Origin: Actinomycetota bacterium
GTDB lineage: Bacteria; Actinomycetota; Acidimicrobiia; Spongiisociales; UBA5794
Assembly: GCA_034660035.1 (NCBI GenBank)
Contig: JAYEIJ010000062.1
Location: 11,522-75,521, forward strand
DNA length: 64,000 nt
Reading direction: 5' to 3'
Shown here: positions 7,758-62,894 of the stretch, in pieces
Layout: each line of letters starts with the position of its first letter
Position numbering within the stretch: the stretch's first letter is position 1
Translations under genes and position numbers: made by a program
Notes under the pieces: model-generated
Databases searched by the model: none
What the model saw: only the letters and a program-made list of their open reading frames with translations
What the model was told of the DNA's origin: nothing

Positions 7758-8408
7758 ATGGACACCGATACCCCGACCCAGCCATCACTCCCCCGACTCA
7801 ACGAACCGGCTCCGGCATTCAGAGCCCCAACGACCCACGGCGTCAAGGAACTGTCGGACTACGCCGGCAAGTGGTTGGTTCTGTTCTCCCATCCGGCCGA
7901 CTTCACCCCGGTCTGCACGACCGAGTTCATGGCATTCGCGAACGCCTACGAGGACTTCCAGGCGATGAACACGGATCTCCTCGGCCTGTCCATCGACTCG
8001 CACTTCTCCCACATCGCGTGGACACGCACGATCGAAGAGAAGTTCGGCGTGAACATCCCGTTCCCGATCATCGCGGACCTCTCCATGGAAGTCGCGAACG
8101 CATACGGCATGATCCAACCCGGAGAGAGCGACACATCGGCGGTTCGATGCACCTTCATCATCGATGACAAGGGCGTTGTCCGGGCGATGGTCTACTACCC
8201 CCTCGCAAACGGGCGCTCGATCGCCGAATTCGTGCGTCTCGTCAAGGCACTGCAGACATCCGACGAGCACGGAGTTGCCACGCCCGAAGCATGGCAGCCC
8301 GGCGATCGGGTCATCGTCCCACCGCCGGCAACAGCAGCCGGAGCGAAAGCGCGACTCGAAGAGGGATATGACTGCATCGACTGGTGGTTCTGCACCAGGG
8401 AACTCTGA
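7758..8408 (+). CDS. peroxiredoxin (1-Cys Prx6-like, AhpC/TSA family)
   Basis: ORF 7665..8408, trimmed to ATG 7758 (MDTDTPTQPSLPRLNEPAPAF...). Has the FTPVCTTE peroxidatic Cys motif. AAAGGGA RBS. Confidence 0.85.
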   Translation: MDTDTPTQPSLPRLNEPAPAFRAPTTHGVKELSDYAGKWLVLFSHPADFTPVCTTEFMAFANAYEDFQAMNTDLLGLSIDSHFSHIAWTRTIEEKFGVNIPFPIIADLSMEVANAYGMIQPGESDTSAVRCTFIIDDKGVVRAMVYYPLANGRSIAEFVRLVKALQTSDEHGVATPEAWQPGDRVIVPPPATAAGAKARLEEGYDCIDWWFCTREL

Positions 8409-14328: not shown

Positions 14329-16041
14329 ATGGCTATGGATACGAACACGATCGACATCGCGATTGCGTCCCTCAACGCCAACAAGACCCGGTGGGCCCGT
14401 CTGCCCATTGCGACGAAGATCTATCTCCTCGACGACATGCGCAGGCGCGTGGGGACCGTGGCCCATGAATGGGTCGAAGCGGCCGCGGTTGCGAAACAGA
14501 TTCCGACCGGTTCGCAGCTTGTGGGCGAGGAATGGACGAGCGGCCCGTATGCCCTTGCAGCCGGTGCCGCTGCCATCGCCGACACGCTCCGACGTATCGA
14601 AGACGGCACACCCATCCTCGAGGGTTTCTCCAGCAAGAAGATGGCCGACGGGCAACTCGCGGTGCAGGTGTTTCCTGCGAACTTCGAGGACCGTCTCTTC
14701 CTCAGCGGTCACACCGCAGAGGTCTGGATGAGGCCCGGCGTCGAGGAGGAAGACCTCGAACGAGGGGCAGCATCGTTCTACCGCACACACGACCCAGAAG
14801 GTTCCGTCACGCTGGTGCTCGGCGCCGGCAACATCGCATCCATCGCGCCACTCGACGTTCTCACCGAACTCTTCAACTACGGCTCCGTGACAGCGGTGAA
14901 ACTCAATCCGGTCAACGCCTACCTCGGCCCCTTCCTCGAAGAGATCTTCGGCTCATTCGTCGATGGCGGATTCGTACGCTTCGTCCACGGAGGCACCGAG
15001 GAAGGCGTCTATCTCACCCGACACGACCTCATCGAACACATTCATGTCACCGGGGCCGCCACAACGCACGACGCGATCGTGTACGGCGTCGGTGAGGAGG
15101 GCGCTCGTCGGAAGATCGCTGACGAACCGGTCAACTCCACGCCTGTGACGAGTGAACTGGGCGGGGTTGGACCGACGATCGTCGCGGGCGGTGAGTGGTC
15201 CGACGCCGATCTGCGCTATCAGGCCGCGCACATCATGAGTCAGAAGCTGCACAACCACGGGTTCAACTGCATCGCATGCCAGGTTCTGGTTCTTCCCGAG
15301 GAGTGGGACCAGGCCGACGCGCTTCTAGATGCCATGCGGGCCGTGGTGGTCGACCTCGGCCAGCGAGGCGCCTACTACCCGGGTGCCAGAGAGCGCCACA
15401 GCGCTGCCGTCGCCGCTCACGAAGATGCAGAGATCCTGACCGATGGTGAGGGACCGGTGACGTTCATCACCGACCTCGACCCGGCCGCGAGCGATGACAT
15501 CTGCTTCACCACCGAGTTCTTCGGTGCCGTGCTGGGCGTGGTTCGCCTGCCGGGGTCCACCACGGAAGAGTTCCTTGAGAACGCCGTGAAGTTCGCGAAC
15601 GAAACGCTGGACGGCAACCTGGGAGCGAATCTGATCATCCACCCGGCTACCGCCAAGCGAGATCCAGAGGCGTTGGAAGCCGCGATCCACGACCTCCGTT
15701 ACGGAACGATCGCGGTGAACTCCTGGGTTGGTATCGCCTTCGCTATGAACCGGGCGACCTGGGGAGCGTTTCCCGGCAACCCTCGCAACGATATCGCATC
15801 GGGAACCGGTGTGGTCCACAACTCCCTCATGCTCGAAGACACCGAGCGCACGGTGGTCCGCGGCGCGTTCGCACCGTTCCCGCGAACGCTGCGGCAGGGC
15901 GTGGTTCACACTGAGCCCACTCCACCGTTCTTCGTCACCAACCGTCGGGCAGCGCACCTCGGCGAGCTACTGACCGAAGCCGTCGTGAGCGGATCACGGA
16001 AGAACCTCCCTGCGATCGTTGCGACGGCGATGCGCGGTTAG
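14329..16041 (+). CDS. aldehyde dehydrogenase family protein (long, divergent form)
   Basis: 570 aa. ELGG(V) general-base motif and a GFNCIAC catalytic Cys region. C-terminal extension relative to canonical ~480-aa ALDHs. Confidence 0.7.
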   Translation: MAMDTNTIDIAIASLNANKTRWARLPIATKIYLLDDMRRRVGTVAHEWVEAAAVAKQIPTGSQLVGEEWTSGPYALAAGAAAIADTLRRIEDGTPILEGFSSKKMADGQLAVQVFPANFEDRLFLSGHTAEVWMRPGVEEEDLERGAASFYRTHDPEGSVTLVLGAGNIASIAPLDVLTELFNYGSVTAVKLNPVNAYLGPFLEEIFGSFVDGGFVRFVHGGTEEGVYLTRHDLIEHIHVTGAATTHDAIVYGVGEEGARRKIADEPVNSTPVTSELGGVGPTIVAGGEWSDADLRYQAAHIMSQKLHNHGFNCIACQVLVLPEEWDQADALLDAMRAVVVDLGQRGAYYPGARERHSAAVAAHEDAEILTDGEGPVTFITDLDPAASDDICFTTEFFGAVLGVVRLPGSTTEEFLENAVKFANETLDGNLGANLIIHPATAKRDPEALEAAIHDLRYGTIAVNSWVGIAFAMNRATWGAFPGNPRNDIASGTGVVHNSLMLEDTERTVVRGAFAPFPRTLRQGVVHTEPTPPFFVTNRRAAHLGELLTEAVVSGSRKNLPAIVATAMRG

Positions 16042-38208: not shown

Positions 38209-39732
38209 ATGAGCACTATCGACCGCGCGAAGAACCTTCTCGACAGGCTTCCACCTCGGGTCGCCTCGGCGCTCATCGGTGGAGCGGCGAAGATCCCCAA
38301 GATGCGGAGCGTCCTCGAAGCCGAGTACGAGACGATGCTGGATGCCGCCCCGGTCGTGCGGCCGGACGCCGACGTGCCTGTCTACTCGCGCCTCCCGGAG
38401 ACGGGTCGGGATCGCGACGAGATCATCGCGTTCGTTGCAGCACTCGCCGAGTCGGAGCAGGGCGAGTGGAGTGACGGTTATGCCTCGGGGGCCGTCTACC
38501 ACGGAAACGCCCAGCACATCGAGTTCCTCAACGAGGTCTACGCCTTGCAGTCACAGTCCAATCCCCTCCACCTCGACGTCTGGCCATCGGGCATGAAGTT
38601 CGAAGCCGAAGTCGTTGCCATGACCGCAGGGATGCTCGGATCGTCAGCAGCGGCAGAGCGAGGCGACGAGATCGTGGGGACCGTCACGTCGGGAGGCACG
38701 GAGTCGATCATCATGGCGATGAAGGCGTACCGGGATCGTGCCGGCATCGCCAAACCCGAGATGGTCATCCCCGACTCGGCTCACGTGGCATTCGACAAGG
38801 CGGCGGCCTACTTCGGCTACAAACAGATCCGGGTCCCCGTCGGAGCCGACTACCGGGCCGACGTCGATGCGATGGCTTCTGCCGTGACGAAACGAACGAT
38901 CGTCGTTGCCGGGTCTACGCCCGGCTTCCCCCACGGCGTCATCGATCCCATTCCGGAACTCTCCGACATGGCCCGCGAACGGGGAGTGGGCTTCCACACC
39001 GATGCGTGCCTCGGTGGCTTCGTACTCCCCTGGGCCGAACGTCTTGGATATCGCGTTCCCCTCTTCGACTTCCGGCTTCCCGGTGTGACGTCGATGTCGG
39101 CCGACACCCACAAGTACGGGTACTCCGCGAAAGGAACGTCGGTTGTTCTGTACCGCGGCAGAGACCTCCGCAGGTATCAGTTCCACGTGGCCACCGAGTG
39201 GCCGGGCGGCCTCTACTACTCCCCCACCCTCGCGGGCAGTCGTCCGGGAGCCCTCCTGGCAACCGCATGGGCCGCGCTCGTGGCCACGGGAGAAGACGGC
39301 TATCTCCGAGCGACGGAGTCGATCTTGGAGACAGGCACCCGGATCCGGGAGGGCATCGCTGAGATCGAAGGCCTGCATGTCCTCGGTGATCCCTTGTGGG
39401 TGATCGCGTTCGGCGCCGAGGACATCGACATCTACGAGGTCATGGCTCGAATGGCCGAGCGAGGATGGAGTCTCAACGGCCTGCACCACCCACCGGCCGT
39501 TCACATCGCCGTCACTCTCCGCCATACCCAACCGGGTGTTGCTGAACGCTTCCTCGATGACCTCTCAGCGTCCGTTGATGGAGCACGGGCCGCCGGAGGT
39601 GGAGCGACCACGGGCGCTGCACCCATGTACGGCATGGCAGCCACGTTCCCCTCACGTGGCGCCGTCAACGAGTTGATGACGCGCTACATCGACAGGATCT
39701 ACGAGGTCGAAGACGAAGACCCGGCCGGCTGA
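38209..39732 (+). CDS. PLP-dependent group II decarboxylase-fold enzyme (sphingosine-1-phosphate-lyase / glutamate-decarboxylase-like)
   Basis: 507 aa. SGGTESI motif and DTHKYG (PLP-lysine motif, as in SPL/Dpl1 and GadB). Confidence 0.8.
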
Positions 39733-39753
39733 GGTACGTGCGCTAACGCCTTG

Positions 39754-39808
39754 AGGTGTCTGGCGTAGAAAACGGCACGGATCCGTCGCTTTTCTACGCC
39801 AGACACCT
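39754..39808 (+). terminator. long perfect hairpin (19-bp stem, 17-nt loop with internal ACGGATCCGT palindrome)
   Basis: AGGTGTCTGGCGTAGAAAA-cggcacggatccgtcgc-TTTTCTACGCCAGACACCT, 22 nt after the stop of the PLP enzyme gene and 60 nt before a small ORF. Confidence 0.55.
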
Positions 39809-39869
39809 CCATGTCGCGTTTGTGTGGCACTATGGAACCGTCATCAAGGACCATTCGAGAGGAGACACC

Positions 39870-39986
39870 CATGGCGAACAAGGACAAGGGTGGGCGGAGC
39901 AGCAAGAAGGCCGCCTCGCGAAGCTTGAAGGAGAAGCGTCAGGCCAAGAAGGCCAAGAGGGCAGGCGATGAGCGAAAACCTCTCTA
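39870..39986 (+). CDS. lysine-rich small protein (38 aa)
   Basis: MANKDKGGRSSKKAASRSLKEKRQAKKAKRAGDERKPL. GAGAGGAG RBS 6 nt upstream. Not in the ORF track. Coordinates +-1. Confidence 0.35.
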
Positions 39987-40094
39987 GGAGTTGACTTCCG
40001 CAAGACCTCTTTCCAACGAATCCCTCCCTTCGATCGGCGCCGGCGCTCCCGGCGATAGGATGCCGGTGGCCGGATCCTCCATCTCGGGACAGGT

Positions 40095-41831
40095 ATGACC
40101 GTCGTTGAAACCTTTGAGAGCCTCCGCACCCGCCCCATCGAGGATTTCGACGACATAGGACTCGCTCTCGACGAACTGGAAGACCGGCCTCTGCCCCCGG
40201 TACCGGACGACGTCCCATTTCTCGCCACCGTCGCCCGAGGCGTTGCATTCGTGACCTTCGCGTACGACATCGACGGTGTCGCCATGGAGATCGCGAAGTA
40301 CGGGATGGCACTTGTGGCGTTGCTCCGTGAGGGGGGGTACGAGCCCAGAGTGCACTGCGTTGGCGGCAATTTCGCGGAGAAGGCCGATGTGGTGCTCCCG
40401 GCGGATTGTCCGCGCATCCTGCTCCACACCGCTGACGGATGGGACAAGTGGGAAGGCGGGAAGTGGTTCGCGCGGCTGTTCTTCAAGGACATGCCGGAGG
40501 GCAGCGCCGCATCGCGCAAGATGGCGACGAAGATGTGGTCCGAGGCGGTGCGCATGGCGGAGGAGCTGGCAACGCTCGTGGCGAACGACGAGATCGGTCT
40601 CCTGATCCCGGTCAACGTCAACTCGAACCCAGGCAACTTCGCACTGGCCCTCGCGATGGTGCTGGTGTCGGAGGTGACCGGATGCCCCGTGTTGAACAAC
40701 AATCACGACTTCTACTGGGAGGGTGGTCGCCCGACCGAGGAGCGGCCCTCGGGCGAACCGGCCGGACCTCGCGACCACTTCTTCCGCAATCACGAGAACA
40801 CGGCCTTCTTCGACGTCTTCCGGCGCATCCTGCCGTGGAACGGCCGGCGCTGGATGCAGGTCAACATCAATCCCGTTCAATCGGTACGACTCGTGGAGCA
40901 GGACGGATTCCCCGCCGATCGCGTCTTCCTCATCGGCACGGGCATCGACGAGGGATTCTCCCAACCCTGCTCCCCCGGGACGAAACGCGAGTACCGACGG
41001 CGAATGGCACACATCCTCTCCGACGGAGAGCCGACGGTCGCCGCAACGCCGATGGCGCAGTTCTTGCAGCACACGGCGGAGTGGATGAGCGATCAGCGCC
41101 CGATCGTGTGCGGGCTACGAGAGGGCACTACGCTCGACTTCGCCTCGCCGAAGACACTGGTTCTGCTGCAACCCACCCGCGTCGTGCCGCGCAAGCGTAT
41201 TCCAAGGGACTGGGCCCTGCTCGACGCATTGTTCCACTACCCCTCGTTCCGGAACGCGTTCGAACAGGACGAGGACATGGCACTCATCTTGCTCGTCACC
41301 GGTCCGGTGCCGATCGAACACAGGATCGACCTCGAGGACGTGCTGACCGCCTTCGGTGATGTCCTGAAATCCGTGCCCGAGTCGATCGGTGAGAGAGTCT
41401 TCCAGGCGTTCTCCGTGGGGAACCAGAACCATTCCTCCCTGTCCGAAGGCCTGGAGATCTTCGACATCTACCACACCGCCGACATGGTTCTGTTCCCGAG
41501 CGAAACCGAGGGGCGGGGTCTTCCCATACCGGAATCCGCGGCGGCCGGCATCCCGATCGTGTGCTCTCGATACGATCCCGTCCTCGTCTTCGACGATGTA
41601 GTAGGCGCGAACCGACCCGAATCCGAACGGTTGAAGTACCTCGAGTTCCCCGAAACCGGGTTCGACAACGAACTCCTCGAACAGATCACTGCCATGCTGC
41701 TCGATCCCACCTCCTTCGCCGACCGAACTCGCCACAATCGGGACGTCGTACAAGCGCGCTACTCGCTGGCGGATCTGCAGCGTTCCTTCTCTGAATACCT
41801 ATCACGCCTGGAATCCGTTCACGGGCGGTGA
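40095..41831 (+). CDS. GT4-family glycosyltransferase with long N-terminal extension
   Basis: 578 aa. C-terminal GT4 signature FPSETEGRGLPIPESAAAGIPIV (E-x7-E motif). The ~350-aa N-terminal region is atypical. Confidence 0.65.
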   Translation: MTVVETFESLRTRPIEDFDDIGLALDELEDRPLPPVPDDVPFLATVARGVAFVTFAYDIDGVAMEIAKYGMALVALLREGGYEPRVHCVGGNFAEKADVVLPADCPRILLHTADGWDKWEGGKWFARLFFKDMPEGSAASRKMATKMWSEAVRMAEELATLVANDEIGLLIPVNVNSNPGNFALALAMVLVSEVTGCPVLNNNHDFYWEGGRPTEERPSGEPAGPRDHFFRNHENTAFFDVFRRILPWNGRRWMQVNINPVQSVRLVEQDGFPADRVFLIGTGIDEGFSQPCSPGTKREYRRRMAHILSDGEPTVAATPMAQFLQHTAEWMSDQRPIVCGLREGTTLDFASPKTLVLLQPTRVVPRKRIPRDWALLDALFHYPSFRNAFEQDEDMALILLVTGPVPIEHRIDLEDVLTAFGDVLKSVPESIGERVFQAFSVGNQNHSSLSEGLEIFDIYHTADMVLFPSETEGRGLPIPESAAAGIPIVCSRYDPVLVFDDVVGANRPESERLKYLEFPETGFDNELLEQITAMLLDPTSFADRTRHNRDVVQARYSLADLQRSFSEYLSRLESVHGR

Positions 41832-41848
41832 ACCGGAGGGACACGGCC

Positions 41849-42973
41849 ATGCACATATGCTTCATCGAGGACACGTACCTGCACGGTGGAACCCAGATCT
41901 GGGTCGCTGAGGCCATGCGCGACTTCTTGGCCAAGGGCCACGACGTGACGCTCTTGACCGCCGCCGACGGCTTCAACGCCCGGGACGGCCTCTTGACCGA
42001 TGCACGGGTCGTGACGTACGACTTCAGCGACGTGGTCACTGAAGATGACCAGCACCGCGACATCTGGAAGGATGCGCTGGCCGGCACCGACGTGGCGGTG
42101 TGCACCGTCCACCCTCCGCGAGACGGCTTCCATTGTTCGGTTTTCGCCGCCCGCTGCATCGAAGAGGCGGGACTGGACACGGTTCTGGAGCCGAAGACCG
42201 GCACGATCGTCCCCGAGTACGAACGCGAGTTCTACCTGCCACCGCGGGACATCCGGAGCCATGTGATCTCCATCACGGACTTCACGCGTCGGTATCTGAT
42301 CGAGAACCTCGGAATCCCCGAGCACGGGGTTTCCCTGGTCTACCAGGGGACGGAGGTCTCGCGCTTCACGCCCGACGAGGACCGTCGGCGGGAAGCCCGG
42401 ACGCGATACCCGCTGCCCTCCGACGCAGCGCCGATCCTCGGAAGCGTGGGTTCGTTCGAACACCGCAAGGGCCAGGTCGTGTTGCTCGAGGCCGTCGTCG
42501 AGATGCGACGGACGCTTCCCAATGTGCACCTGATGCTGGTGGGAGACGGGCCCGACGAGGACTTGCTGAAGGCCAAGGTCGAGGAGTTGGGACTCGAAGC
42601 GAACGTCACGTTCTTCCCGTTCACGAAGGAACCAGTCCACGTCTTCGAGGTCATCGACATCCTCGTTCTCTCCAGCCTCTACAAGGAGGGGTTGCCCAAC
42701 GTGATCCTCGAGGCGATGTCGATGGGCCTTCCCGTCGTCGCGTCGCGCATGGCGGGTGTTCCCGAGGTGGTGATTGACGGCCGCACCGGTTGGATGACCG
42801 ACCCCGGCGACGCCCACGGCCTGGCCCGCGCCGTAGAACGGCTCTGGGAAGACCCGGTGGCCTGCCGGGAGATGGGGTATGAGGGTCGCCGGCTCATGGA
42901 AGAGAAGTTCGACAAGGTGCACCAGTTCGATGCCTTCCTCGAACACTTCGCGACTCAGATCGGTCAGTCGTGA
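41849..42973 (+). CDS. GT4-family glycosyltransferase (GT-B, retaining)
   Basis: ORF 41828.., ATG 41849 (MHICFIEDTYLHGGTQIW...). GGAGGGA RBS. LSSLYKEGLPNVILEAMSMGLPVVAS EX7E motif. GlgM/PimA/MshA-like size. Confidence 0.8.
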   Translation: MHICFIEDTYLHGGTQIWVAEAMRDFLAKGHDVTLLTAADGFNARDGLLTDARVVTYDFSDVVTEDDQHRDIWKDALAGTDVAVCTVHPPRDGFHCSVFAARCIEEAGLDTVLEPKTGTIVPEYEREFYLPPRDIRSHVISITDFTRRYLIENLGIPEHGVSLVYQGTEVSRFTPDEDRRREARTRYPLPSDAAPILGSVGSFEHRKGQVVLLEAVVEMRRTLPNVHLMLVGDGPDEDLLKAKVEELGLEANVTFFPFTKEPVHVFEVIDILVLSSLYKEGLPNVILEAMSMGLPVVASRMAGVPEVVIDGRTGWMTDPGDAHGLARAVERLWEDPVACREMGYEGRRLMEEKFDKVHQFDAFLEHFATQIGQS

Positions 42974-43025
42974 GGATCAAAGGCTCCGCGGTCTTGCCCC
43001 CATCTCAGCGACTGGTTCTCGCTCG

Positions 43026-43919
43026 TTGACCACGCCGACCGATACCGGGACCGACGACGACGCGATCCTCCGAGATGTTGCTGCTCGCGTGCCGGAGCTT
43101 GCTCAAGCCACACACCTGAGCGTCACGCACCTGGTCGGTGGCCTCACCAACAGGAACTACCTCGTCGGCACCGACGACGTCCAGTTCGTGATTCGGATTG
43201 CCGGCGAGAACGGACCGCTCCTCGGTGTCGATCGTGCGCGGGAGAAGGACGTGATCGATATCGTCGAAGCGGCGGGCATCACACCGCAGCTTGCAGCTTT
43301 CGTCCTACCCGATGGCCACGCTGCGACCCGCTTCCTCGCAGGAGCCCATGCGCTCAGCATCGACGAGTTCACCTCCCCGGCAATGGTCCCGCGCCTCGCT
43401 GCGAAGCTGCGCGAGGTGCACAACCTCGGACCTGTGCAAGGCGTGTTCGATCCACACGCCGACATCACCCGCTGGATGGACCTGCTGAGGTCGAAGGGCA
43501 CACCCTTGCCGTCCCGTCTCGACCCGCTCCTCGAACTCGTTGCCGCATCGCATGCCGTTCGACCCCGACCAGCGGAACACGAGATGGTGCTCTGCCACAA
43601 CGATCCCTATCACCTGAACTTCCTCGACGATGGGACCCTCTGGCTCATCGACTGGGAGTACGCGGGGATGAACGATCCGATGTACGACCTCGCGGGCATC
43701 GCATACACGCTCGACGACAAGGGCCGTGATCTGCTGCTCGAGGCCTACTTCGGCTCGGTTGCACCACAGACTCGCCGTGATCTCGAAGCACTCATGCCGG
43801 TGTATCTGTGCTGGAACGTGGTCTGGTCCCTCATCCAGATCGATGGCGGCCTCAGAGGTTTCGACTACTTCAGCTACTCCGAAGAGCTCCTCGACTGGAT
43901 GCCGGCGCTTCGGACCTGA
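43026..43919 (+). CDS. phosphotransferase-family kinase (APH/choline-kinase-like fold)
   Basis: ORF 42879..43919. LVGGLTNRNY Gly-rich loop, LCHNDPYHLNF (Brenner HxDxxxxN motif), and LIDWEYAG (DxE). Start uncertain (TTG 43026 proposed). Confidence 0.65.
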   Translation: MTTPTDTGTDDDAILRDVAARVPELAQATHLSVTHLVGGLTNRNYLVGTDDVQFVIRIAGENGPLLGVDRAREKDVIDIVEAAGITPQLAAFVLPDGHAATRFLAGAHALSIDEFTSPAMVPRLAAKLREVHNLGPVQGVFDPHADITRWMDLLRSKGTPLPSRLDPLLELVAASHAVRPRPAEHEMVLCHNDPYHLNFLDDGTLWLIDWEYAGMNDPMYDLAGIAYTLDDKGRDLLLEAYFGSVAPQTRRDLEALMPVYLCWNVVWSLIQIDGGLRGFDYFSYSEELLDWMPALRT

Positions 43920-44085
43920 ACCTGTAGTCGAAGCAGTCGGCCGCCCCGGTTGTGGCATTCCGATCTCGGTACCTCGCTCTTCCGTCCAACCGGAAGACGC
44001 CAAGCTCAGTCAGCTTGTCTGATTAGGGTGACCTTTCAAGACGTTCCCCACCATGGACCGGCGTCCATTACCGAAGGAGATACCT

Positions 44086-44472
44086 ATGGCGCAACAACCC
44101 GGAGGTTGGTACACCGACCCGACCAGGCAATACATGTACCGCTACTGGAACGGGACCCAGTGGACCAACCAGGTGAGCAGCAGCGGGATCACCAGCACCG
44201 ACCCGAACGCCATGGACCCGTCGGCTGCCATCACGCCCCCGGCTCCGGGTTCCGAGGTAGCGACTCCACCCCAGGCTGCACCGGCGCCGACGGTTCAGGT
44301 CTCGCAGAAGAGTGGAACGGGAATCGGCGTCATCATCGGTGTCCTCGTGGCCGTTGTGGCGGTCATCGTGTTGATCCTCGTGCTGATGAACAGCTCGGGG
44401 GGCGACTCACCGACGTCGACCACCGGCGCTCCGGCAACGACAGTAGCCCCGGCAACGACCGTCGCTCCGTAG
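44086..44472 (+). CDS. DUF2510 domain membrane protein
   Basis: ORF 44053.., ATG 44086 (MAQQPGGWYTDPTRQYMYRYWNGTQWT). AAGGAG RBS. C-terminal TM helix and Pro/Thr-rich tail. Confidence 0.7.
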   Translation: MAQQPGGWYTDPTRQYMYRYWNGTQWTNQVSSSGITSTDPNAMDPSAAITPPAPGSEVATPPQAAPAPTVQVSQKSGTGIGVIIGVLVAVVAVIVLILVLMNSSGGDSPTSTTGAPATTVAPATTVAP

Positions 44473-44520
44473 CGAGCAACCCATCTGGGAAGGGGTTGAA
44501 GCACTCCCCCCGCTTCATGA

Positions 44521-44555
44521 CAGAACCCTGTAACCGTTCCGGTTACAGGGTTCTG
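44521..44555 (+). terminator. perfect 16-bp hairpin (CAGAACCCTGTAACCG-ttc-CGGTTACAGGGTTCTG)
   Basis: Direct read of the sequence. 48 nt after the DUF2510 stop. Resembles the hairpin at 48522-48554. Confidence 0.55.
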
Positions 44556-44852
44556 CCGCATCGTTTCGCGCCTCTTCTCAGCACTGCTCGGTGTCATGTG
44601 GACGCGGTGTGGTCGCGAACCCAAACCTGCCGAACCCAGTGGATAGACAGACCGTCCATGATCGACACAGCGAACGGCTCGCAGAGCGGTGCATAACGAC
44701 CGCGCCTCCATCACCACCCTGATCATCACGAATCCAACACACCCAACCGGGTATGAGCGGCCGGGAGAACGATCTAACCCTTGACCGGGAGTAAGCGCTG
44801 GACTGAGATTGGGGTGTAGATATTCGTCGGGATTACCGGAAGGGAGGCTGGA

Positions 44853-45719
44853 GTGTTCGAGTTCAGCAAGCCGGACCTGACCCCTGAGACCAGACAGGAC
44901 TTGCCGGGGAGCTTCGTCGGATTGTCGGCAGGCGTCACGCACTACGAGTTGAGCGGGGACGCAGACGGCCGGCGTGTCGTTCTGATCCATGGCAATGCCG
45001 CACCCTACGTGCAATGGGACAACACGATTGGGGATCTGCGCGATGCCGGGTGCCGGGTGCTCAGGTATGACGTGATCGGGCACGGCTTCACGGATAGGCC
45101 GCGATTGCGCACCTACGACGCACAGCTGTACAACACGCAACTCGCCGAGTTGATTGACCGTCTCGACATTCCCTATCCGGTCTCTGTAGTGGGAACGTCC
45201 CAGGGTGGGAGCATCGGCGCCTGCTTTGCAGCGGCGTATCCGGGGAGGGTCGAGAGGCTCGCCCTGCTCGCGCCGTTCTTCGACACCCACGGAGGAGGCA
45301 TAGGCGCTGTGCTTCTCAAGACCCCCATCGTCGGGGAACTCCTTCTAGGACTGGCGCCCGACAGCAAGATCATCGATCGAACGAACTATTTCGTTCAGTC
45401 CGCCGACAAGAGAACGGCTCTTGAACACGAGATCGCAAAACAACTCCGTTTTCGGGGGAAACGGAGAGCAATGCTGGCCAACGCGAGAGGGGACGCACTG
45501 GTCGACGCAACATCCTGGTACGAAGGCGTCAAGGCTCAGGGCATTCCCACGCTGCTCACATGGGGAACCCAAGACAAGCTGCTACCCGAAGACTCCATGA
45601 GCAGATTGCGCGATCTGCTCCCCGACATCGAATACCACGAACTCGAAGGGGCTGCACATCTAGCGCACTATGAGTTCCCGGACCGCATCAACCCGATCCT
45701 GACTCGATTCTTGAGATAG
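44853..45719 (+). CDS. alpha/beta hydrolase
   Basis: 288 aa, GTG start with GGAAGGGAGG RBS. HGNAAP, the nucleophile elbow GTSQGG, and a C-terminal His. Confidence 0.8.
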   Translation: MFEFSKPDLTPETRQDLPGSFVGLSAGVTHYELSGDADGRRVVLIHGNAAPYVQWDNTIGDLRDAGCRVLRYDVIGHGFTDRPRLRTYDAQLYNTQLAELIDRLDIPYPVSVVGTSQGGSIGACFAAAYPGRVERLALLAPFFDTHGGGIGAVLLKTPIVGELLLGLAPDSKIIDRTNYFVQSADKRTALEHEIAKQLRFRGKRRAMLANARGDALVDATSWYEGVKAQGIPTLLTWGTQDKLLPEDSMSRLRDLLPDIEYHELEGAAHLAHYEFPDRINPILTRFLR

Positions 45720-45749
45720 ACCGCCCGTATGAGGCACGTTTGCGCTGCC

Positions 45750-45959
45750 TCAGCTGCTGGCTCCCGCAACGAGGGTAGCGACGATGTGGGTGGCGTGTCG
45801 GTCGAGGGAGCGGCGTGCACGGTCGTAGCGCGTCGTCGTTCTCGGGTCTGCATGCGATGCCGCCTCATGCACATCTCGCAGTGGGACTCCTGCATCGAGG
45901 GCCGCGGTGATGAACCAATGGCGCAGCGAATGCGGATTGATGCGCTTGTCGACCTGCAC
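45750..45959 (-). pseudogene. tyrosine recombinase (phage integrase) C-terminal fragment
   Basis: 69-aa ORF. NPHSLRHWFITAALDAGVPLRDVHEAASHADPRTTTRYDRA matches integrase catalytic box II/III (HxxRH...Y). No N-terminal or core-binding domains upstream. Confidence 0.6.
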
Positions 45960-46094
45960 GCCGCCAACTCAACCACCCAATCAGACAGCGCGGATGCGCC
46001 GGCATGGGCGGATCTCGGTCCTGAATTCCCTGTGCGTGCTGGCTGTCCGGTGGGTAGCCTTGGCATGGGATGGCAAGGAGAATCGGGGTGCGCG

Positions 46095-46604
46095 ATGCGC
46101 AGACTCGCCAAGATACTCGCCGTGGTGCTCGGTGTAGTCATAGTGGAACAGCTGGTCGAGACCGTACTGATGATGTGGGCGTTTCACTCCCGCAGCCCGC
46201 TGGCGATGGGGTTGCTCAAGCGCTACCACAAGTACGTGACCAATCCGGTGATGGTCCGGTTCATCTCGGGCCGGTCAGCGCACGCCGCGTTGCTCCATCA
46301 CGTCGGTAGGCGGTCGGGGAAAGCTTACGAGACGCCCCTGACGGCTCACCGGACGGAAGACACCATCATCGTGGGGCTGCCCTACGGCACGGGAGTCGAC
46401 TGGTTGCGCAACCTGCAAGCTGCCGGTCAGGGTGTTGTGGAACTCGATGGCCAGAGTGTCACTGTCGATGAACTGGAGGTGGTTCCAGTCGACCGCGTCA
46501 TGGCGCTCCTTCCCCCTTTCATGGTTCGAATCTTCCATCTGCACGACACCGAACACGCCCTCCGCCTACACGTCGCGGGACCCGGCGAGCGACTGTCCGC
46601 CTGA
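46095..46604 (+). CDS. deazaflavin (F420)-dependent nitroreductase-family protein (Ddn/DUF385-like)
   Basis: ORF 45729.., ATG 46095 (MRRLAKILAVVLG...). Small split-barrel-like protein with a conserved GVDWLRNLQAAGQGVVELDG region. Confidence 0.6.
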   Translation: MRRLAKILAVVLGVVIVEQLVETVLMMWAFHSRSPLAMGLLKRYHKYVTNPVMVRFISGRSAHAALLHHVGRRSGKAYETPLTAHRTEDTIIVGLPYGTGVDWLRNLQAAGQGVVELDGQSVTVDELEVVPVDRVMALLPPFMVRIFHLHDTEHALRLHVAGPGERLSA

Positions 46605-46661
46605 AGCCCGCTGTCTGCCTCGCTAGCGGCTTTCGCCGCGCTGCGGCAACGCGTCGACCGG

Positions 46662-47357
46662 CTAGGTCAGGGATTCTGCGAATCTTCGGAAGGCTCCTGA
46701 GGCCTGGGTGTGGATCGGTTTGGAATGGCAGAAGGCTGCGATCTCGAACTCGAATTCGGCGAGGTGGCGCAGACTGCCGTCGATTTCTGGTGTGGACCGG
46801 TTGTACCCGCGTTTCACCCTGCCATCTTTGGTAGCCCAGGCGGCGTCCCCCACAAGCAGGAGCCCGCCGTCTCGATCCAGAAGGTAGGAGGTATGTCCGG
46901 GAGTGTGTCCGGGCGTGTCGATGGCACGAAGATCTCCTGGAAGCAGTTCCTTGGCGTCTTCGGTGACGAAGTGGTCCACCTCTACGGGAGGTGCGTCCGG
47001 GAAGAAGACCGCCAACCAGAACAACGGCCGGAAATACCAGTGGGTAGGCGGTGTGGGTGGTTTCACGACTCCCTGAATCGCAGGCGTGTCTCCTTCGGAT
47101 GCATAGACGCTGGCCTTGGATGCCGCCTTGATTGCTGCAGCGCTCCCCGCGTGGTCGCCGTGGGAATGGGTGAGCAGGATCGCTCTGACATCGTCGAGAG
47201 TACGGCCGACCTCTTTCAGGTTCTGGGAGATTGCACCTTCTCTGCCACGGACCAGAGTGTCCACCAACGTCACGCCCTCATCACCATCGATGATGTACGA
47301 GTTCACTATCCCGGTGCCGAGCTGATACACGCCGTCGACAAGGAGTTCCATCCTCAT
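46662..47357 (-). CDS. MBL-fold metallo-hydrolase
   Basis: 231 aa. THSHGDHAG (HxHxDH) motif and a later GHTPGH. Confidence 0.8.
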   Translation of the reverse strand: MRMELLVDGVYQLGTGIVNSYIIDGDEGVTLVDTLVRGREGAISQNLKEVGRTLDDVRAILLTHSHGDHAGSAAAIKAASKASVYASEGDTPAIQGVVKPPTPPTHWYFRPLFWLAVFFPDAPPVEVDHFVTEDAKELLPGDLRAIDTPGHTPGHTSYLLDRDGGLLLVGDAAWATKDGRVKRGYNRSTPEIDGSLRHLAEFEFEIAAFCHSKPIHTQASGAFRRFAESLT

Positions 47358-47373
47358 TGCAGCTCCTCTTCGT

Positions 47374-48147
47374 TCACCTACCGGTTGCTTCGCTCGATGC
47401 TCCGGGTTGTGGTTGACCGCAGGTTCGCTCGACGAACTCGGGAGGCCAGGGAGCGGATGTCACCCCCTGCTTGGAGTACCGGAAGTCGCATCGGTCGCAG
47501 CCCCAGGCCAGGGTCTTGGTCCGTCGAAGTCCGGTTCCTATCCCCTCGTACTTCACATAGTCGAGGTCGCAGAGATACGGGCCGAGCTCGTCGGCCTCTT
47601 GGGCGTGGAAGAACTTGACGATGCCGCACTCGGTCGTGTCCATCCCGAAGTCGAAGGTTTCCCCGTCGCCGTCGATGCGCTCGAACACCCAGTCTCCCGG
47701 ATAGCGGCGGGCCTGCGACTTGCGAGCAGCCCTCTCCAATCGCCACCTCCTCAGCCTGGTGAAGTAGTATCTGCCGGCCCCGTGACGAACCACTCGGGGA
47801 AACCGCTCCGTCTCCGCTTGTGCCGTCCGGTGAAGCAACTCTCCGGTGTCCTCGAGACTCCCGCCGTGCCGGATGACCACCCGGTACAACGCCAGCGCCC
47901 GCGCCGCGAACGAGAGATGGCCGGATTTGCTGTTCCGCCATCCCCCGATGTACGGAACCTCGGGGATCAGACGCCGATACTCGTCCAGCATCTCCCCCCG
48001 CATCACCACCACCGTCTCCTCACCGAAACGGTCAACCAGGGCATCACCCCACCGCTCCGAGTACCGGTCGAATCTGCCTACCAGCTTCTCCATCTGCCGA
48101 CTCGAAGTCGGTGCCTTCGTCTCAGGCCGGTTCTTCTCGACCCTCAT
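47374..48147 (-). CDS. hypothetical protein, ATC-hydrolase-like (L-2-amino-thiazoline-4-carboxylate hydrolase family)
   Basis: 257 aa. Cys-rich C-terminal region (CGIVKFFHAQE...LCDLDYVKYEG...GCDRCDF). Family assignment tentative. Confidence 0.4.
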   Translation of the reverse strand: MRVEKNRPETKAPTSSRQMEKLVGRFDRYSERWGDALVDRFGEETVVVMRGEMLDEYRRLIPEVPYIGGWRNSKSGHLSFAARALALYRVVIRHGGSLEDTGELLHRTAQAETERFPRVVRHGAGRYYFTRLRRWRLERAARKSQARRYPGDWVFERIDGDGETFDFGMDTTECGIVKFFHAQEADELGPYLCDLDYVKYEGIGTGLRRTKTLAWGCDRCDFRYSKQGVTSAPWPPEFVERTCGQPQPGASSEATGR

Positions 48148-48521
48148 GGTGACCTCCTAGGATCGCCCCGCACAGACCACTCCACTCTTCAACCTCAGTC
48201 TCACTTTCCATCCCTGTCAAGGGTCACAATGGTTCTCCCGACCCTGGATCGTCGTTCCTGTGGGAATCGAGCACGCTGATGGCCGCCCGGAGCCCTCACC
48301 GCCCCACCGCTGTACCGAAGTGGATACGTCTATACCCGGTGATATGCGCAGGGAAGTGGCCCGATGGTCTGCGACGACTCCGGGAGCTGCGGTGACGCCG
48401 ATTGTCGAAGCCGGCGGGAATCTCGACCTCAGCACGAGCTCCGCGTAGCGGCATGCCTGGAGAGCCATTCGACCTTGTTGGCTCCCCTGGGCCTTCTTGG
48501 GCGTTCCGATCCGGATACTGA

Positions 48522-48554
48522 GAAACCCCGTAACCGCTATGGCTACGGGGTTTC
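48522..48554 (-). terminator. hairpin immediately 3' of tRNA-Pro
   Basis: GAAACCCCGTAACC-gctat-GGCTACGGGGTTTC. Stem of 13 with one mismatch. Shares the GTAACCG core with the 44521 hairpin. Confidence 0.45.
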
Positions 48555-48560
48555 TACTCG

Positions 48561-48634
48561 TCGGGCTGGCCGGATTTGAACCGGCGACCTCTTGACCCCC
48601 AGTCAAGCGCGCTGCCATGCTGCGCCACAGCCCG
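48561..48634 (-). tRNA. tRNA-Pro (anticodon GGG)
   Basis: Reverse-complement CGGGCTGTGGCGCAGCATGGCAGCGCGCTTGACTGGGGGTCAAGAGGTCGCCGGTTCAAATCCGGCCAGCCCGA. 7-bp acceptor stem, D arm GCGC/GCGC, anticodon stem CTTGA/TCAAG with loop CTGGGGG, T arm GCCGG-TTCAAAT-CCGGC. No encoded CCA. Ends +-1. Confidence 0.8.
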
Positions 48635-48685
48635 GACTACGGCATCCTACCGTCGGCTTCGAAGAAGCCTCCGGAGGAGTCTCGC

Positions 48686-49264
48686 CTACTCTTCGGTTTC
48701 GAACTCTTCAACGGCGATCGCAGCCGCATCGGGGATACCGTCACCGTCGAGATCCACTGCAACGGCCTCAGCCACCACGGCCTCGACGTGATCGAGGGAT
48801 CCGTCACCGTCGAGGTCGATACCGGCCGCTTCGACCACGACCGTCTCCGCAACGTCCGGGAGTCCGTCCCCCGTCGTGTCATAGGCAACCGTCGTTGTCT
48901 CGGTGATCTCGATCGAGTCGGGCGTCCCGTCACCGTCGAGGTCCATGACGACCTGCTCGGTCACGACTCGCGTGCCGACGTCCGGTACGCCGTCGCCATC
49001 CACGTCAACCACGGTCTCAACGATCGTGGTCGTCTCGACGATGTCGGGAACTCCGTCTCCGTCGACATCGATCTCACGCACCTCGGTGCTGGTTACCGCG
49101 ACTCCGTCGGCGATCCCGTCGCCGTCGACGTCGATCTCGGAGGCCACTACGTCTGACATGACGATGCCGTCATCGGTCACACCGATCGTGATCTCTTCCA
49201 CTACGTCTTCGACGGCGATTTCTTCTTCGATCGTCTCGGACGCGTCATCGAATGTGGACTCCAT
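48686..49264 (-). CDS. hyper-acidic repeat protein with seven DxDGDGxPD (EF-hand-loop / thrombospondin-type-3-like) calcium-binding repeats
   Basis: 192 aa. Seven repeats of ~21 aa: DVDGDGIAD, DVDGDGVPDIVE, DVDGDGVPD, DLDGDGTPDSIE, DTTGDGLPDVAE, DLDGDGSLDHVE, DLDGDGIPD. No signal peptide. Very high Asp/Glu/Val/Thr content. Confidence 0.6.
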   Translation of the reverse strand: MESTFDDASETIEEEIAVEDVVEEITIGVTDDGIVMSDVVASEIDVDGDGIADGVAVTSTEVREIDVDGDGVPDIVETTTIVETVVDVDGDGVPDVGTRVVTEQVVMDLDGDGTPDSIEITETTTVAYDTTGDGLPDVAETVVVEAAGIDLDGDGSLDHVEAVVAEAVAVDLDGDGIPDAAAIAVEEFETEE

Positions 49265-49412
49265 CGGGTTACCTCTGTGGTTGGGAAACCGCAGCGTACC
49301 CGTGTGGTGGCGCCCATGTCACCGATGACCCACGTTGCGGGCGCATGATTCGATAGGATTGCCCGATGCACGTTCGTCCACGGCAAGCCACCGCACCTCC
49401 GCGGACACTCCC

Positions 49413-51068
49413 ATGACCGAATCCCCCGACTGGTTCACCCTCGTCATGGGGCTGACCGGTGGCCTGGCGATCTTCCTGATCGGCATGGATCGAACGGTCA
49501 GCGGGCTGAAGGGCATCGCGGGCAATCGCCTCCGATGGATCTTGTCTCATCTCACCGGGAACCGATGGTTCGGCGCAGCGACCGGCGCCGGGATCACCGC
49601 AATCATCCAGTCATCCAGCATCACGACCGTCGTCGTCGTGGGCCTTGTCTCTGCCAAGGCGATGACACTGACTCAATCGGTCGGAGTGATCTTCGGGGCG
49701 AACGTCGGCACGACGATCACGGCGCAGATCATCGCATTCAAGGTGACCAAGTACGCTCTCGCCGCGGTCGCTATCGGTTTCGCCATCGAGTTCTTCTCTC
49801 GATCGGAACTCGCCGAGCGCATCGGAAGAACCGTCCTGGGTCTCGGGTTGGTCTTCTTCGGCATGGCCGTGATGGGCCTCGCCATGGAACCCCTCACCGA
49901 GTACCAGCCCTTCCTCGATGCGATGGCAGCGATCTCGAACGTCTGGATCGGCGTCCTCATCGGTGCGGTCTTCACGGCCCTCATCCAGTCTTCGTCGGCG
50001 ACGACCGCCATCGTCATCGCCATGGCCGCGACCAACTTGATCTCACTCGAACTCGCCATCGCCTTCGTGCTCGGTGCCAACGTGGGCACCTCGGTCACCG
50101 CCCAACTCGCAGCCATCGGAAAGCCGGTCGAGGCGAAGCGAGTCGCGATGGTTCACACGCTCTTCAATGTGATCGGCGTCGTGATCTGGATACCGTTCGT
50201 ACCGTTCCTCGCCTCGGTAGCGATCCGCCTCTCCCCCGCCGGCGACGTGGCCCGGCAGGTTGCGTGGGCACACACGACGTTCAACGTGGCCAACCTCTTC
50301 ATCTTCATCTGGTTCACGACATGGTTCGCCAAGGCGGCGACCTTCCTCGTGAAAGACCGGAAAGCGGCAGATACCCCCGTCATCGAAGCCCGGTATCTCA
50401 GCGTGGAGTTGCTCGCGACGCCCTCCATCGCCCTCGATCGTGCCCGCATGGAGATCGCTCGGATGGGTACCCGGGTCCGCGACATGGTGATCGCAGGCGT
50501 ACCGGCAGCGGTTTCCGGCACAGAAACCGATCTCGCTGCCGTGGAAGCTTCCGACGACGAAGTGGACGAGCTTCACGCTCAGGTCGTGGCCTACCTCGGT
50601 CGTATCTCCGAACGCGATATCACCCGGGAACAGACCAACGAGCTCCTCGGACTCCTCGAGGCGGCGGGAGACATGGAGGCCATCGGCGATGCCGTGGAGA
50701 TCAACCTCGTCTCCGACGGCAGGCGCCGCCTGGAAGCGGGTCTCATGATCTCTCCCTCAACGGCCGCTGTCATCAACGACATCGCCACCGAGGTCATTAC
50801 GGCTGTCGACATCGCCGTGGGGGCCGTCGGTCGCAGCAGTCCGGAGGCCGCGCGTCGGGCGATCGACATGAAGCCCGAGATCACCGCCCGAACGACCCAC
50901 GCGATCGAGTACCAGCTCGAACGGCTGACGGCCGACGAGCCCGATCGCGTCGAGGCGTACCGCATCGAGTCGGACATCATCGAGGACCTGAAGCGCATCT
51001 ACTACTACGCGAAGCGGGCCGCCCGAGTCGGTGTTCCCGATGAGCAACCAACAGAGTCCCCCGAGTAG
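49413..51068 (+). CDS. Na+/phosphate cotransporter family protein (NptA-like) with C-terminal PhoU-like domains
   Basis: ORF 49335.., ATG 49413 (MTESPDWFTLVMGLTGG...). Duplicated Na_Pi_cotrans motifs (QSSSITT, QSSSATT). Soluble helical C-terminal domain. Confidence 0.85.
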   Translation: MTESPDWFTLVMGLTGGLAIFLIGMDRTVSGLKGIAGNRLRWILSHLTGNRWFGAATGAGITAIIQSSSITTVVVVGLVSAKAMTLTQSVGVIFGANVGTTITAQIIAFKVTKYALAAVAIGFAIEFFSRSELAERIGRTVLGLGLVFFGMAVMGLAMEPLTEYQPFLDAMAAISNVWIGVLIGAVFTALIQSSSATTAIVIAMAATNLISLELAIAFVLGANVGTSVTAQLAAIGKPVEAKRVAMVHTLFNVIGVVIWIPFVPFLASVAIRLSPAGDVARQVAWAHTTFNVANLFIFIWFTTWFAKAATFLVKDRKAADTPVIEARYLSVELLATPSIALDRARMEIARMGTRVRDMVIAGVPAAVSGTETDLAAVEASDDEVDELHAQVVAYLGRISERDITREQTNELLGLLEAAGDMEAIGDAVEINLVSDGRRRLEAGLMISPSTAAVINDIATEVITAVDIAVGAVGRSSPEAARRAIDMKPEITARTTHAIEYQLERLTADEPDRVEAYRIESDIIEDLKRIYYYAKRAARVGVPDEQPTESPE

Positions 51069-51074
51069 GTCCTT

Positions 51075-51230
51075 CTACCCCGAGATCCACCCGATGAGCG
51101 CCCCGATCCCCTGGATGAGTCTCCAACCGAGGTAGAGGGCCGTGAGGCCGATGAGCAGCATGAATCCGATCGGCCAGCGCTGCTGCTCGGCGTCCCGGTC
51201 CGTGTCGTCCGCCGTTCGCTCTTCGGTCAT
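51075..51230 (-). CDS. small membrane peptide (51 aa) translationally coupled to the carboxyltransferase
   Basis: MTEERTADDTDRDAEQQRWPIGFMLLIGLTALYLGWRLIQGIGALIGWISG. The ATG overlaps the accD-like TGA (gtATGAcc). It is the C-terminal part of track ORF 51075..51740, in the same frame. Confidence 0.35.
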   Translation of the reverse strand: MTEERTADDTDRDAEQQRWPIGFMLLIGLTALYLGWRLIQGIGALIGWISG

Positions 51231-61485: not shown

Positions 61486-62367
61486 CTACCGGGCGCGTGG
61501 GTGCGCCGTAACGTACACCTCGTAGAGGTGCTCGGGGGACACAAGCGTGTAAACCTGTGTGGTGCTGATACTAGCGTGACCGAGCATTTCTTGGACGGTT
61601 CTTAGGTCCGCTCCCCCTTCGACCATGTGGGTTGCCGCTGAATGACGGAGAACGTGCGGGGAAAGAGCAGCGTCTTCGATACCGGCGCGTCGACCGTTTC
61701 GCTTCACGATGTCCCACATCCCCTGGCGCGTCAGCGACGTTCCCCTGGCGTTGACGAACAGGACATCACTCCGTTCCCTCTCACTGAGAAGCTCCAGTCG
61801 GACGGGGAGGTACGTCTCGATCGCGGCCCTCGCGTGGCGCCCGAGGGGTACGAGGCGTTGCCTGTCCCCCTTGCCCGTCACGATCACGGTCCCGGATTCG
61901 AGATCCAGATCCGTGAGACCCACCGTGACCGCCTCTGTGACGCGCGCCCCGGTCGCGTAGAGGAACTCGAGGATCGCCACATCGCGAAGACCGAGCGGTG
62001 TCGATCGATCGGGCGCATCGAGCAGATCCTCTATCAGGTCGATCGTGAGGGCCTTCGGAAGGTTGCGCGACCTCCGGGGTGCTTCGATCAGGACCGTCGG
62101 ATCCTCGGTCACGCGACCTTCGACGACGAGGAACCGGTGATAGCCACGCACTGCCGCGAGTTTCCGCGCGCGTGTCGATCGCGCCAGGCCGCGGTGCGCC
62201 AGATCCGCTACGAATCCCCCGACGTCACCGGATGAACCCTCATCATCGAGGAATCCGAAGTAGTCGCGAAGGTCGCGCCGGTATGCGGCCACCGTGTTCG
62301 ATGAGAGGCCACGCTCGGACCGCAGCGCACCCAGGAATTCCTCTGCGTCGGCCGGTAGCGGACTCAT
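61486..62367 (-). CDS. xerD: site-specific tyrosine recombinase XerD
   Basis: ORF 61486..62544, trimmed to ATG 62367 (MSPLPADAEEFLGALRSERGLS...). Catalytic R...HxLRHSxATH...LGHASISTTQVY. Position downstream of pyrG-nudix as in other actinobacteria. Confidence 0.85.
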   Translation of the reverse strand: MSPLPADAEEFLGALRSERGLSSNTVAAYRRDLRDYFGFLDDEGSSGDVGGFVADLAHRGLARSTRARKLAAVRGYHRFLVVEGRVTEDPTVLIEAPRRSRNLPKALTIDLIEDLLDAPDRSTPLGLRDVAILEFLYATGARVTEAVTVGLTDLDLESGTVIVTGKGDRQRLVPLGRHARAAIETYLPVRLELLSERERSDVLFVNARGTSLTRQGMWDIVKRNGRRAGIEDAALSPHVLRHSAATHMVEGGADLRTVQEMLGHASISTTQVYTLVSPEHLYEVYVTAHPRAR

Positions 62368-62894
62368 CGCCCCGCGACGAGGAGAAGCCCTGCCACGGTC
62401 TTGGCATCGGTGATCACACCGGAACGGACTTGCTCGACGGCTTCGTCGAGGGGTATCCGGACGACGCGAGCGTGATGCTCCTCCGCCCCCATAGGCCGCA
62501 TCGCTACCGCTATGAGGTCGGTCGCGAGGTAGATCGTGATGCATTCATCGCTGAATCCCGGAGTTGTGAGGAGATCGATCAGATGCTCCAGGTTCCCCGG
62601 AGTGAAACCGATCTCTTCCTCGAGTTCGCGCTCGGCCGTATGCCGTCGATCCTCGCCGGGGATGTCCAGTTTTCCGGCCGGGATCTCCAGGAGCGGTCGA
62701 CCGACGGCAGCACGGTGCTGCTCGATCATGATCACGTCGTCACCGACGATCGGTACAACGGCTACGGCCCCGGGATGAACGACAACGACCCTCTTGATCG
62801 GATTGCCGTCCGGTGTCGTAACGGTGGCCCGGTCGAGTCTCAGGAACGCCTCTTCGGCGATCGTCCTCGACCCCAGGGTCCGGAAGCCGCTCAT
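62364..62894 (-). CDS. NUDIX hydrolase (ADP-ribose pyrophosphatase-like)
   Basis: 176 aa. Nudix box GKLDIPGEDRRHTAERELEEEIG. Confidence 0.85.
   Translation of the reverse strand: MSGFRTLGSRTIAEEAFLRLDRATVTTPDGNPIKRVVVVHPGAVAVVPIVGDDVIMIEQHRAAVGRPLLEIPAGKLDIPGEDRRHTAERELEEEIGFTPGNLEHLIDLLTTPGFSDECITIYLATDLIAVAMRPMGAEEHHARVVRIPLDEAVEQVRSGVITDAKTVAGLLLVAGR

Follow-up and report, generated by a model that had tools for sequence, protein, structure and literature searches.

The question raised by this locus is whether the short block of genes on the 3′ side of a proline tRNA gene, tRNA-Pro(GGG), is a decayed integrative island, or whether its content reached this place by other means. The window, which is the whole 64-kb stretch of DNA that was analysed, belongs to a metagenome-assembled genome (MAG) of an uncultured member of the Acidimicrobiia (Actinomycetota) and has a GC content of 0.63. 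A first reading of the letters, hereafter the original prediction, described a probable decayed island at this tRNA, and this description is now supported by comparative breakpoints and by a dead integrase stub. We propose that the segment 44557-48520 is a strain-specific accessory islet, composed of the remains of at least one insertion of the phage or integrative and conjugative element (ICE) type mediated by a tyrosine integrase, in a hypervariable slot 3′ of tRNA-Pro(GGG). The probability of this reading is estimated at about 0.6. It leans on five features:

44086-44472, plus strand: DUF2510 membrane-protein gene (PF10708; earliest possible start 44053), part of the left flank and not cargo
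44521-44555, no strand: H1 hairpin, left border of the variable block, a palindrome with 16-nt arms and a 3-nt loop
45750-45959, minus strand: 5′-truncated tyrosine integrase pseudogene of 69 codons (PF00589), with HxLRH and RY motifs
48521-48555, minus strand: H2 hairpin, right border of the block, with a 15-bp stem and −29.3 kcal/mol on the tRNA strand
48560-48634, minus strand: tRNA-Pro(GGG), called by ARAGORN (Rfam 64.3 bits), the anchor of the variable locus

The tRNA gene is encoded on the minus strand, and therefore its 3′ side points to lower coordinates. The tRNA calls were made with ARAGORN and Rfam, and the domains of the block proteins were assigned by Pfam, NCBIfam and PHROG scans.

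Relatives of the locus were recovered by a scan with the Na/Pi transporter encoded at 49413-51068 (protein identity 71-92%), and the nearest loci come from Acidimicrobiia MAGs. Exact-protein look-ups with the ATC hydrolase of the block, the Na/Pi transporter and the integrase stub gave no contig. The transporter of locus L001 is 92% identical to that of the window, and the MAG of L001 also contains the contig L143; the transporter of L002 is 90% identical.

Positions 43113-44556 of the window correspond to L143 1-1468 with 85% identity, and an APH gene, a spacer, the DUF2510 gene and H1 are collinear in both. The homology ends at 44556, the right edge of H1. Beyond this point L143 carries genes for TMEM175, an AI-2E-type transporter, DUF1269 and DUF2252, none of which is present in the window. 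Two blocks of the contig L002, only 16 bp apart, align to 40048-43912 and 48557-51202, and the contig is devoid of both hairpins, of the DUF2510 gene and of the cargo. At its junction (L002 9127-9147) the APH stop codon lies 13 nt from the 3′ end of tRNA-Pro, and this stop codon is still followed by GTCATC, the motif with which the APH-DUF2510 spacer of L143 opens. In loci L007, L008 and L052 the distance between a conserved gene (gene D, window 38209-39732) and the tRNA is only 0.9-2.6 kb, and it holds an inositol-monophosphatase-like gene; in L004 and L010 a BrkB-family gene occupies this interval. In all five, the content beside tRNA-Pro is unrelated to the cargo of the window.

The three close genomes thus present three different states, and the cargo was found at this locus in no outgroup. 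A gene order conserved beside tRNA-Pro had been named as a sign of ancestral content; the order was found to vary even among the closest relatives. Every relative examined has different content here, so that 44557-48520 is a slot of fast turnover beside the tRNA; within the window it is the most recent layer, with H1 and H2 as its borders.

The same tRNA locus also shows variability of older origin. The cluster of two glycosyltransferase genes and an APH/choline-kinase gene at 40095-43919, between gene D and the tRNA, was found in the window and in L002 only, with the APH gene occurring also in L143. Metagenome contigs with APH homologs (74-81% identity) show this gene in other contexts and carry no information on the junction. 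In L002, tRNA-Pro converges directly on a coding gene, with no obvious terminator.

The second line of evidence is the integrase stub. The original prediction had reported a 69-aa C-terminal fragment of a tyrosine integrase 2.6 kb from the tRNA, and both parts are confirmed: the 5′ end of the stub lies at this distance from tRNA-Pro, and the fragment matches positions 124-168 of the 172 of PF00589 with 34.8 bits, above the cut-off of 27.1. In the 306-aa integrase (gp35) of Arthrobacter phage Judy its counterpart is residues 243-306 (67% identity), so that what remains is the last 64 residues, about 21% of an integrase of some 300 aa, and about 79% of the gene is gone. Two stop codons stand directly upstream, and no other integrase piece was found in the block by tblastn with the full-length phage integrase, frameshifted upstream parts being sought as well; the fragment is not the end of an intact gene. 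The block can no longer move, because only this last portion of the integrase gene is left. The stub belongs to an integrative family: its identity is 65-67% to the integrases of temperate phages of Arthrobacter and Gordonia, and 72-73% to full-length integrases of about 300 aa on IMG/VR contigs. No hairpin-like attP was found beside these full-length viral relatives.

The best 120 database matches to the stub (including P0002-P0120) are all short C-terminal fragments of 67-120 aa, with 76-88% identity, and some of them are located on long contigs beside insertion sequence (IS) elements (loci L057 and L058). Dead C-terminal stubs of this integrase family seem to be common, with the qualification that short metagenome contigs and a score that depends on length may account for part of the pattern. 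The sole other match of the full-length phage integrase in the window is an apparently intact Xer-like tyrosine recombinase gene (61486-62544, minus strand; 27% identity over 260 residues), which is presumably the chromosomal XerC/D and unrelated to the island.

The third line of evidence is given by the hairpins. Similar hairpins had been noticed at both borders, and they hold up as a pair that coincides with the comparative breakpoints. The arms of H1 are 100% complementary and fold at −31 to −34.7 kcal/mol; H1 and H2 have folding z-scores of −4.8 to −6.9 and are the two strongest hairpins within the 64 kb. They share the 13-mer AACCCYGTAACCG, which has no other occurrence in the window (0.00 expected). 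H1 is kept in L143 and L144, and the homolog of the DUF2510 protein in the closest relative (P0241) is 92% identical and encoded in the same APH-DUF2510-H1 order. Apart from these H1 homologs, no other copy of the arms was found in the 64-kb window or in the 148 fetched loci. A dispersed palindromic repeat family, like the repetitive extragenic palindromic (REP) sequences, was considered and rejected for this reason, there being just two copies in 64 kb.

The right edge of the block falls at H2, 4 nt short of the 3′ end of tRNA-Pro. A hairpin of related sequence, read on the tRNA strand as GAGAACCCTTGC-loop-GCAAGGGTTCTTCTC, is found 2-4 nt past the 3′ end of tRNA-Pro in L003, L004, L007, L008, L010 and L052; compared with these, the stem of H2 is extended by a central TAACCG/CGGTTA. 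Because the same position is kept in six relatives, H2 would be the tRNA's own, positionally conserved terminator-like hairpin. H1, in turn, is a putative terminator of the DUF2510 gene, and looks like a duplicated copy of H2. Neither hairpin is followed by a U-tract or T-run, and a scan with the canonical intrinsic-terminator consensus misses both. Hairpin-only ("I-shaped") intrinsic terminators occur in high-GC Actinobacteria. H1 and H2 resemble them in being strong GC-rich stem-loops placed directly after a tRNA or a protein-coding gene, and in the conserved position of the tRNA hairpin across relatives; they differ in being related in sequence to each other, which is not required of independent terminators.

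Partial copies of tRNA-Pro were also found elsewhere in the clade. L052 has a 58-nt partial copy (8261-8317) about 820 bp from the full gene (9136-9210), 83% identical to the tRNA of the window; it reaches from the anticodon stem to 7 nt past the 3′ end. L060 has a 51-nt tRNA-Pro-like 3′ half at 15461-15512 (88% identity), in a locus that lacks a full tRNA. These copies are the kind of scar left at tRNA 3′ ends by tyrosine-integrase elements, and the L052 region looks like a mini-island or an integration scar.

Two particulars of these loci may be added. In L052, the partial copy and the full tRNA bracket a small DUF2200-like open reading frame (ORF; its identity was read from the translation), and GAGTAGA, the 7 nt that follow the partial copy, agrees with the tRNA flank of the window and not with that of L052 itself. 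In L060, the tRNA half lies between sigma-70 and amine-oxidase genes, and a pair of alpha/beta hydrolase and ATC-hydrolase genes is located 7 kb away on the same contig.

That an insertion took place, in which polarity, and how the hairpin came to be duplicated, we infer as follows. An element would have inserted at, or just past, the tRNA's 3′ end, between this gene and a terminator that it once shared with the convergent DUF2510 gene. If the att region of the element held a copy of the terminator, a related hairpin would be left at each end of the block, H1 now terminating the DUF2510 gene and H2 the tRNA. Through later deletion and rearrangement most of the integrase gene may then have been lost, the repeat derived from the tRNA worn away and the cargo reordered.

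Such a history has precedents. In actinomycetes, a tyrosine integrase inserts integrative elements at an attB overlapping the 3′ end of a tRNA gene, which for pSAM2 is a Pro-tRNA, and in Streptomyces coelicolor an island is flanked by a 43-bp repeat at the 3′ end of a Pro-tRNA (PMC2440964). The block shares with pSAM2 and the S. coelicolor island the location on the 3′ side of a Pro-tRNA, a tyrosine-integrase homolog and strain-specific accessory cargo; in actinomycete tRNA islands, secondary decay and accretion are to be expected. It differs from them in its integrase, cut to 64 residues, in its size of only 4 kb, in its uncultured Acidimicrobiia host, and in that a tRNA-derived direct repeat is not demonstrable in it. 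In comparison with the small (about 300 aa) integrases of temperate actinobacteriophages, the C-terminal 64 residues, with the HxLRH and RY motifs among them, are conserved at 67% identity, but this C-terminus alone is left, with no other phage gene in the block. The block is not a prophage. An actinomycete integrative and conjugative element (AICE) was likewise rejected, because there are no replication or FtsK-like transfer genes by int/xis in the block.

Between the hairpins and the cargo genes there are two non-coding gaps, where an att remnant was sought:

44557-44852, no strand: left non-coding gap, GC 0.59, with two weak stretches resembling the tRNA 3′ half, in direct orientation
48148-48520, no strand: right non-coding gap, upstream of the ATC-hydrolase gene, GC 0.617, no Rfam match

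Both gaps had been described as lower in GC. This is true of the left one (0.589, the 5th percentile of 380-bp windows) but not of the right one (0.617, the 27th percentile). The tRNA-like stretches of the left gap, at about 44758-44798 and 44820-44840, score 13 and 12 and are not collinear. Their summed score has P = 0.0065 against dinucleotide shuffles, yet it falls only within the top 2.4% of real 297-nt windows. The two stretches are possibly a decayed attR. A weak partial match to the tRNA 3′ end in this gap, earlier offered as a degenerate att remnant, does exist (44821-44840 against 48555-48574, 16/20), but as a remnant it is not clearly above chance. Chance repeat families of similar appearance are many, and the best tRNA-like matches of the region do not include it. 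The right gap has only 37 nt in common with the region upstream of the ATC-hydrolase gene in L060 and L061.

Apart from the att search, about 65 nt of the left gap (44697-44762) match L072 5375-5439 on the opposite strand (78% identity, E = 2e-5). The matching stretch of L072 is non-coding and lies near the contig end; it could be a small conserved element or a chance match.

Several observations weigh against the insertion of an element at the tRNA. When both strands of 39733-48479 were searched for a direct repeat of the 3′ end of tRNA-Pro, no match rose clearly above the shuffle background, and a permissive Rfam scan returned just the tRNA, with no pseudo-tRNA in the block. No tRNA-Pro-like attP was found within 3 kb of the full-length viral relatives of the integrase. 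The stub does not adjoin the tRNA, being 2.6 kb away from it, and no excisionase, replication or transfer gene was detected in the block by the Pfam, NCBIfam and PHROG scans. H2, read as the terminator-like hairpin of the tRNA, would not be an element end as such. L002, from which the conserved tRNA terminator is missing, looks more like the product of a deletion than like a clean empty site. Finally, the GC content of the block is normal (0.619 against 0.630 ± 0.010 for 4-kb windows, 13th percentile).

The composition check that had been suggested was nevertheless not wholly negative, as codon usage is mildly atypical. With respect to the usage of the window, the five genes from DUF2510 through the ATC hydrolase have negative z-scores (−0.85 to −2.2), and the flanking glycosyltransferase, transporter and carboxylase genes have positive ones. 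This is mild support for an accessory or acquired status and is consistent with donors of similar GC.

The cargo consists of four genes:

44853-45719, plus strand: alpha/beta hydrolase (Pfam Abhydrolase_1, 92 bits)
46095-46604, plus strand: deazaflavin (F420)-dependent nitroreductase-family oxidoreductase (F420H2_quin_red, PF04075; TIGR00026)
46662-47357, minus strand: hydrolase of the MBL fold (Lactamase_B, PF00753, 96 bits)
47374-48147, minus strand: ATC_hydrolase-family protein (PF14196, 69.5 bits)

Their identities are those of the original prediction, as given by Pfam, but the placement was not correct for all of them: the alpha/beta hydrolase gene lies on the far side of the stub, and not between the stub and the tRNA. 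The F420 protein passes TIGR00026 (48.7 bits, cut-off 46.35), and the MBL hydrolase is under every specific NCBIfam cut-off. No mobility, phage or specific resistance assignment was obtained for any cargo protein with Pfam, NCBIfam and PHROG. A role of the cargo in defence or in a phage was rejected, as these scans, of which PADLOC was not part, gave no matches. The cargo is made of generic hydrolases and an oxidoreductase and points to no specific phenotype.

Homologs of the alpha/beta hydrolase and of the ATC hydrolase are found on other metagenome contigs with 79-87% nucleotide identity. L060 and L061 have the two genes side by side in one orientation, the alpha/beta hydrolase gene (79-83% nucleotide identity to that of the window) directly upstream of the ATC-hydrolase gene, in variable neighbourhoods with DUF222, DUF4262 and SnoaL-like genes. 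ATC-hydrolase homologs with 72-83% identity occur elsewhere in varied contexts, and HicAB is present in the L059 neighbourhood of cargo homologs. The window has these two hydrolase genes in convergent orientation, separated by the integrase stub, the F420 gene and the MBL gene. The block has therefore been rearranged, since a pair that is adjacent elsewhere is here split and inverted. A simple inversion was tried as the cause of this arrangement and rejected: the supposed breakpoints carry neither inverted nor direct repeats, and 45930-46100 resembles the right gap no more than background. The contexts of ATC-hydrolase and DUF2510 homologs are variable, and among them there was no intact element and no empty site with the order DUF2510-hairpin-tRNA.

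These cargo homologs bear on the question of how the slot was filled. It is conceivable, although we consider it rather unlikely, that no site-specific integration took place here, and that the cargo was exchanged among related strains by homologous recombination, or by local rearrangement, between the flanks that the closest relatives conserve, APH-DUF2510-H1 to the left and H2-tRNA-Na/Pi transporter to the right. The integrase stub would then be a passenger from an older, unrelated event, and the hairpins terminators of common ancestry. Breakpoints that fall at conserved sequence blocks are what such an exchange would give, as are a block GC like that of the rest of the genome, the lack of a significant att repeat, and cargo genes whose homologs are spread over other contigs, with the hydrolase pair adjacent in varied contexts. 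The stub inside the block argues instead for an integrase-mediated event, as do the tRNA-Pro 3′-half scars of L052 and L060, and a duplicated terminator-like hairpin is the expected product of att duplication.

It is still less probable that the block is ancestral content, deleted in L002 and replaced in L143, with no insertion in the lineage of the window. The junction of L002 speaks for this possibility, as it is without even the conserved tRNA terminator, and the GTCATC that follows its APH stop codon matches the beginning of the L143 spacer, as would be seen after a 4.6-kb deletion. A loss of that kind in L002 does not, however, explain why three close genomes present three states with no outgroup holding the cargo at this locus, nor the integrase pseudogene in the block, nor its mildly atypical codon usage.

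The idea that recombination takes place at the hairpins themselves, through a tyrosine recombinase that recognises the palindromic tRNA-Pro terminator (lox/dif-like arms with a short spacer), inserts cassettes and duplicates the hairpin, has very little probability: the comparative breakpoint does lie exactly at the H1 edge, H1 and H2 are direct-repeat-like, with loops that fit better in direct orientation (GCTCG in the L143 H1, GCTAT in H2), and no tRNA-body repeat is detectable, but there are two hairpin copies only, L052 and L060 have classical tRNA-body scars without hairpins, and a terminator function could fully explain both hairpins. If it were true, the locus would be a hairpin-bounded cassette slot, refilled with different cargo by different strains.

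The gene directly upstream of the tRNA (48686-49264, minus strand) encodes an acidic, internally repetitive protein with FG-GAP/DxDGD repeats, which is conserved in the relatives. The contig L001 starts inside this protein, at the equivalent of window position 49206, which suggests that the repeats break assemblies.

We therefore return to the reading of 44557-48520 as the remains of a tyrosine-integrase insertion. The block is an ordinary degraded tRNA-associated islet, whose sole unusual feature is the pair of related hairpins at its ends. It provides one documented case of tRNA-Pro(GGG) as a hot spot of integration and turnover in uncultured marine or sediment Acidimicrobiia, which is of use for annotating flexible genome regions in MAGs. 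It also calls for caution, as a short ORF annotated as a "tyrosine recombinase" can be a dead stub. A duplicated terminator hairpin can serve as a landmark for island borders, and alone it is no sign of a new mechanism.

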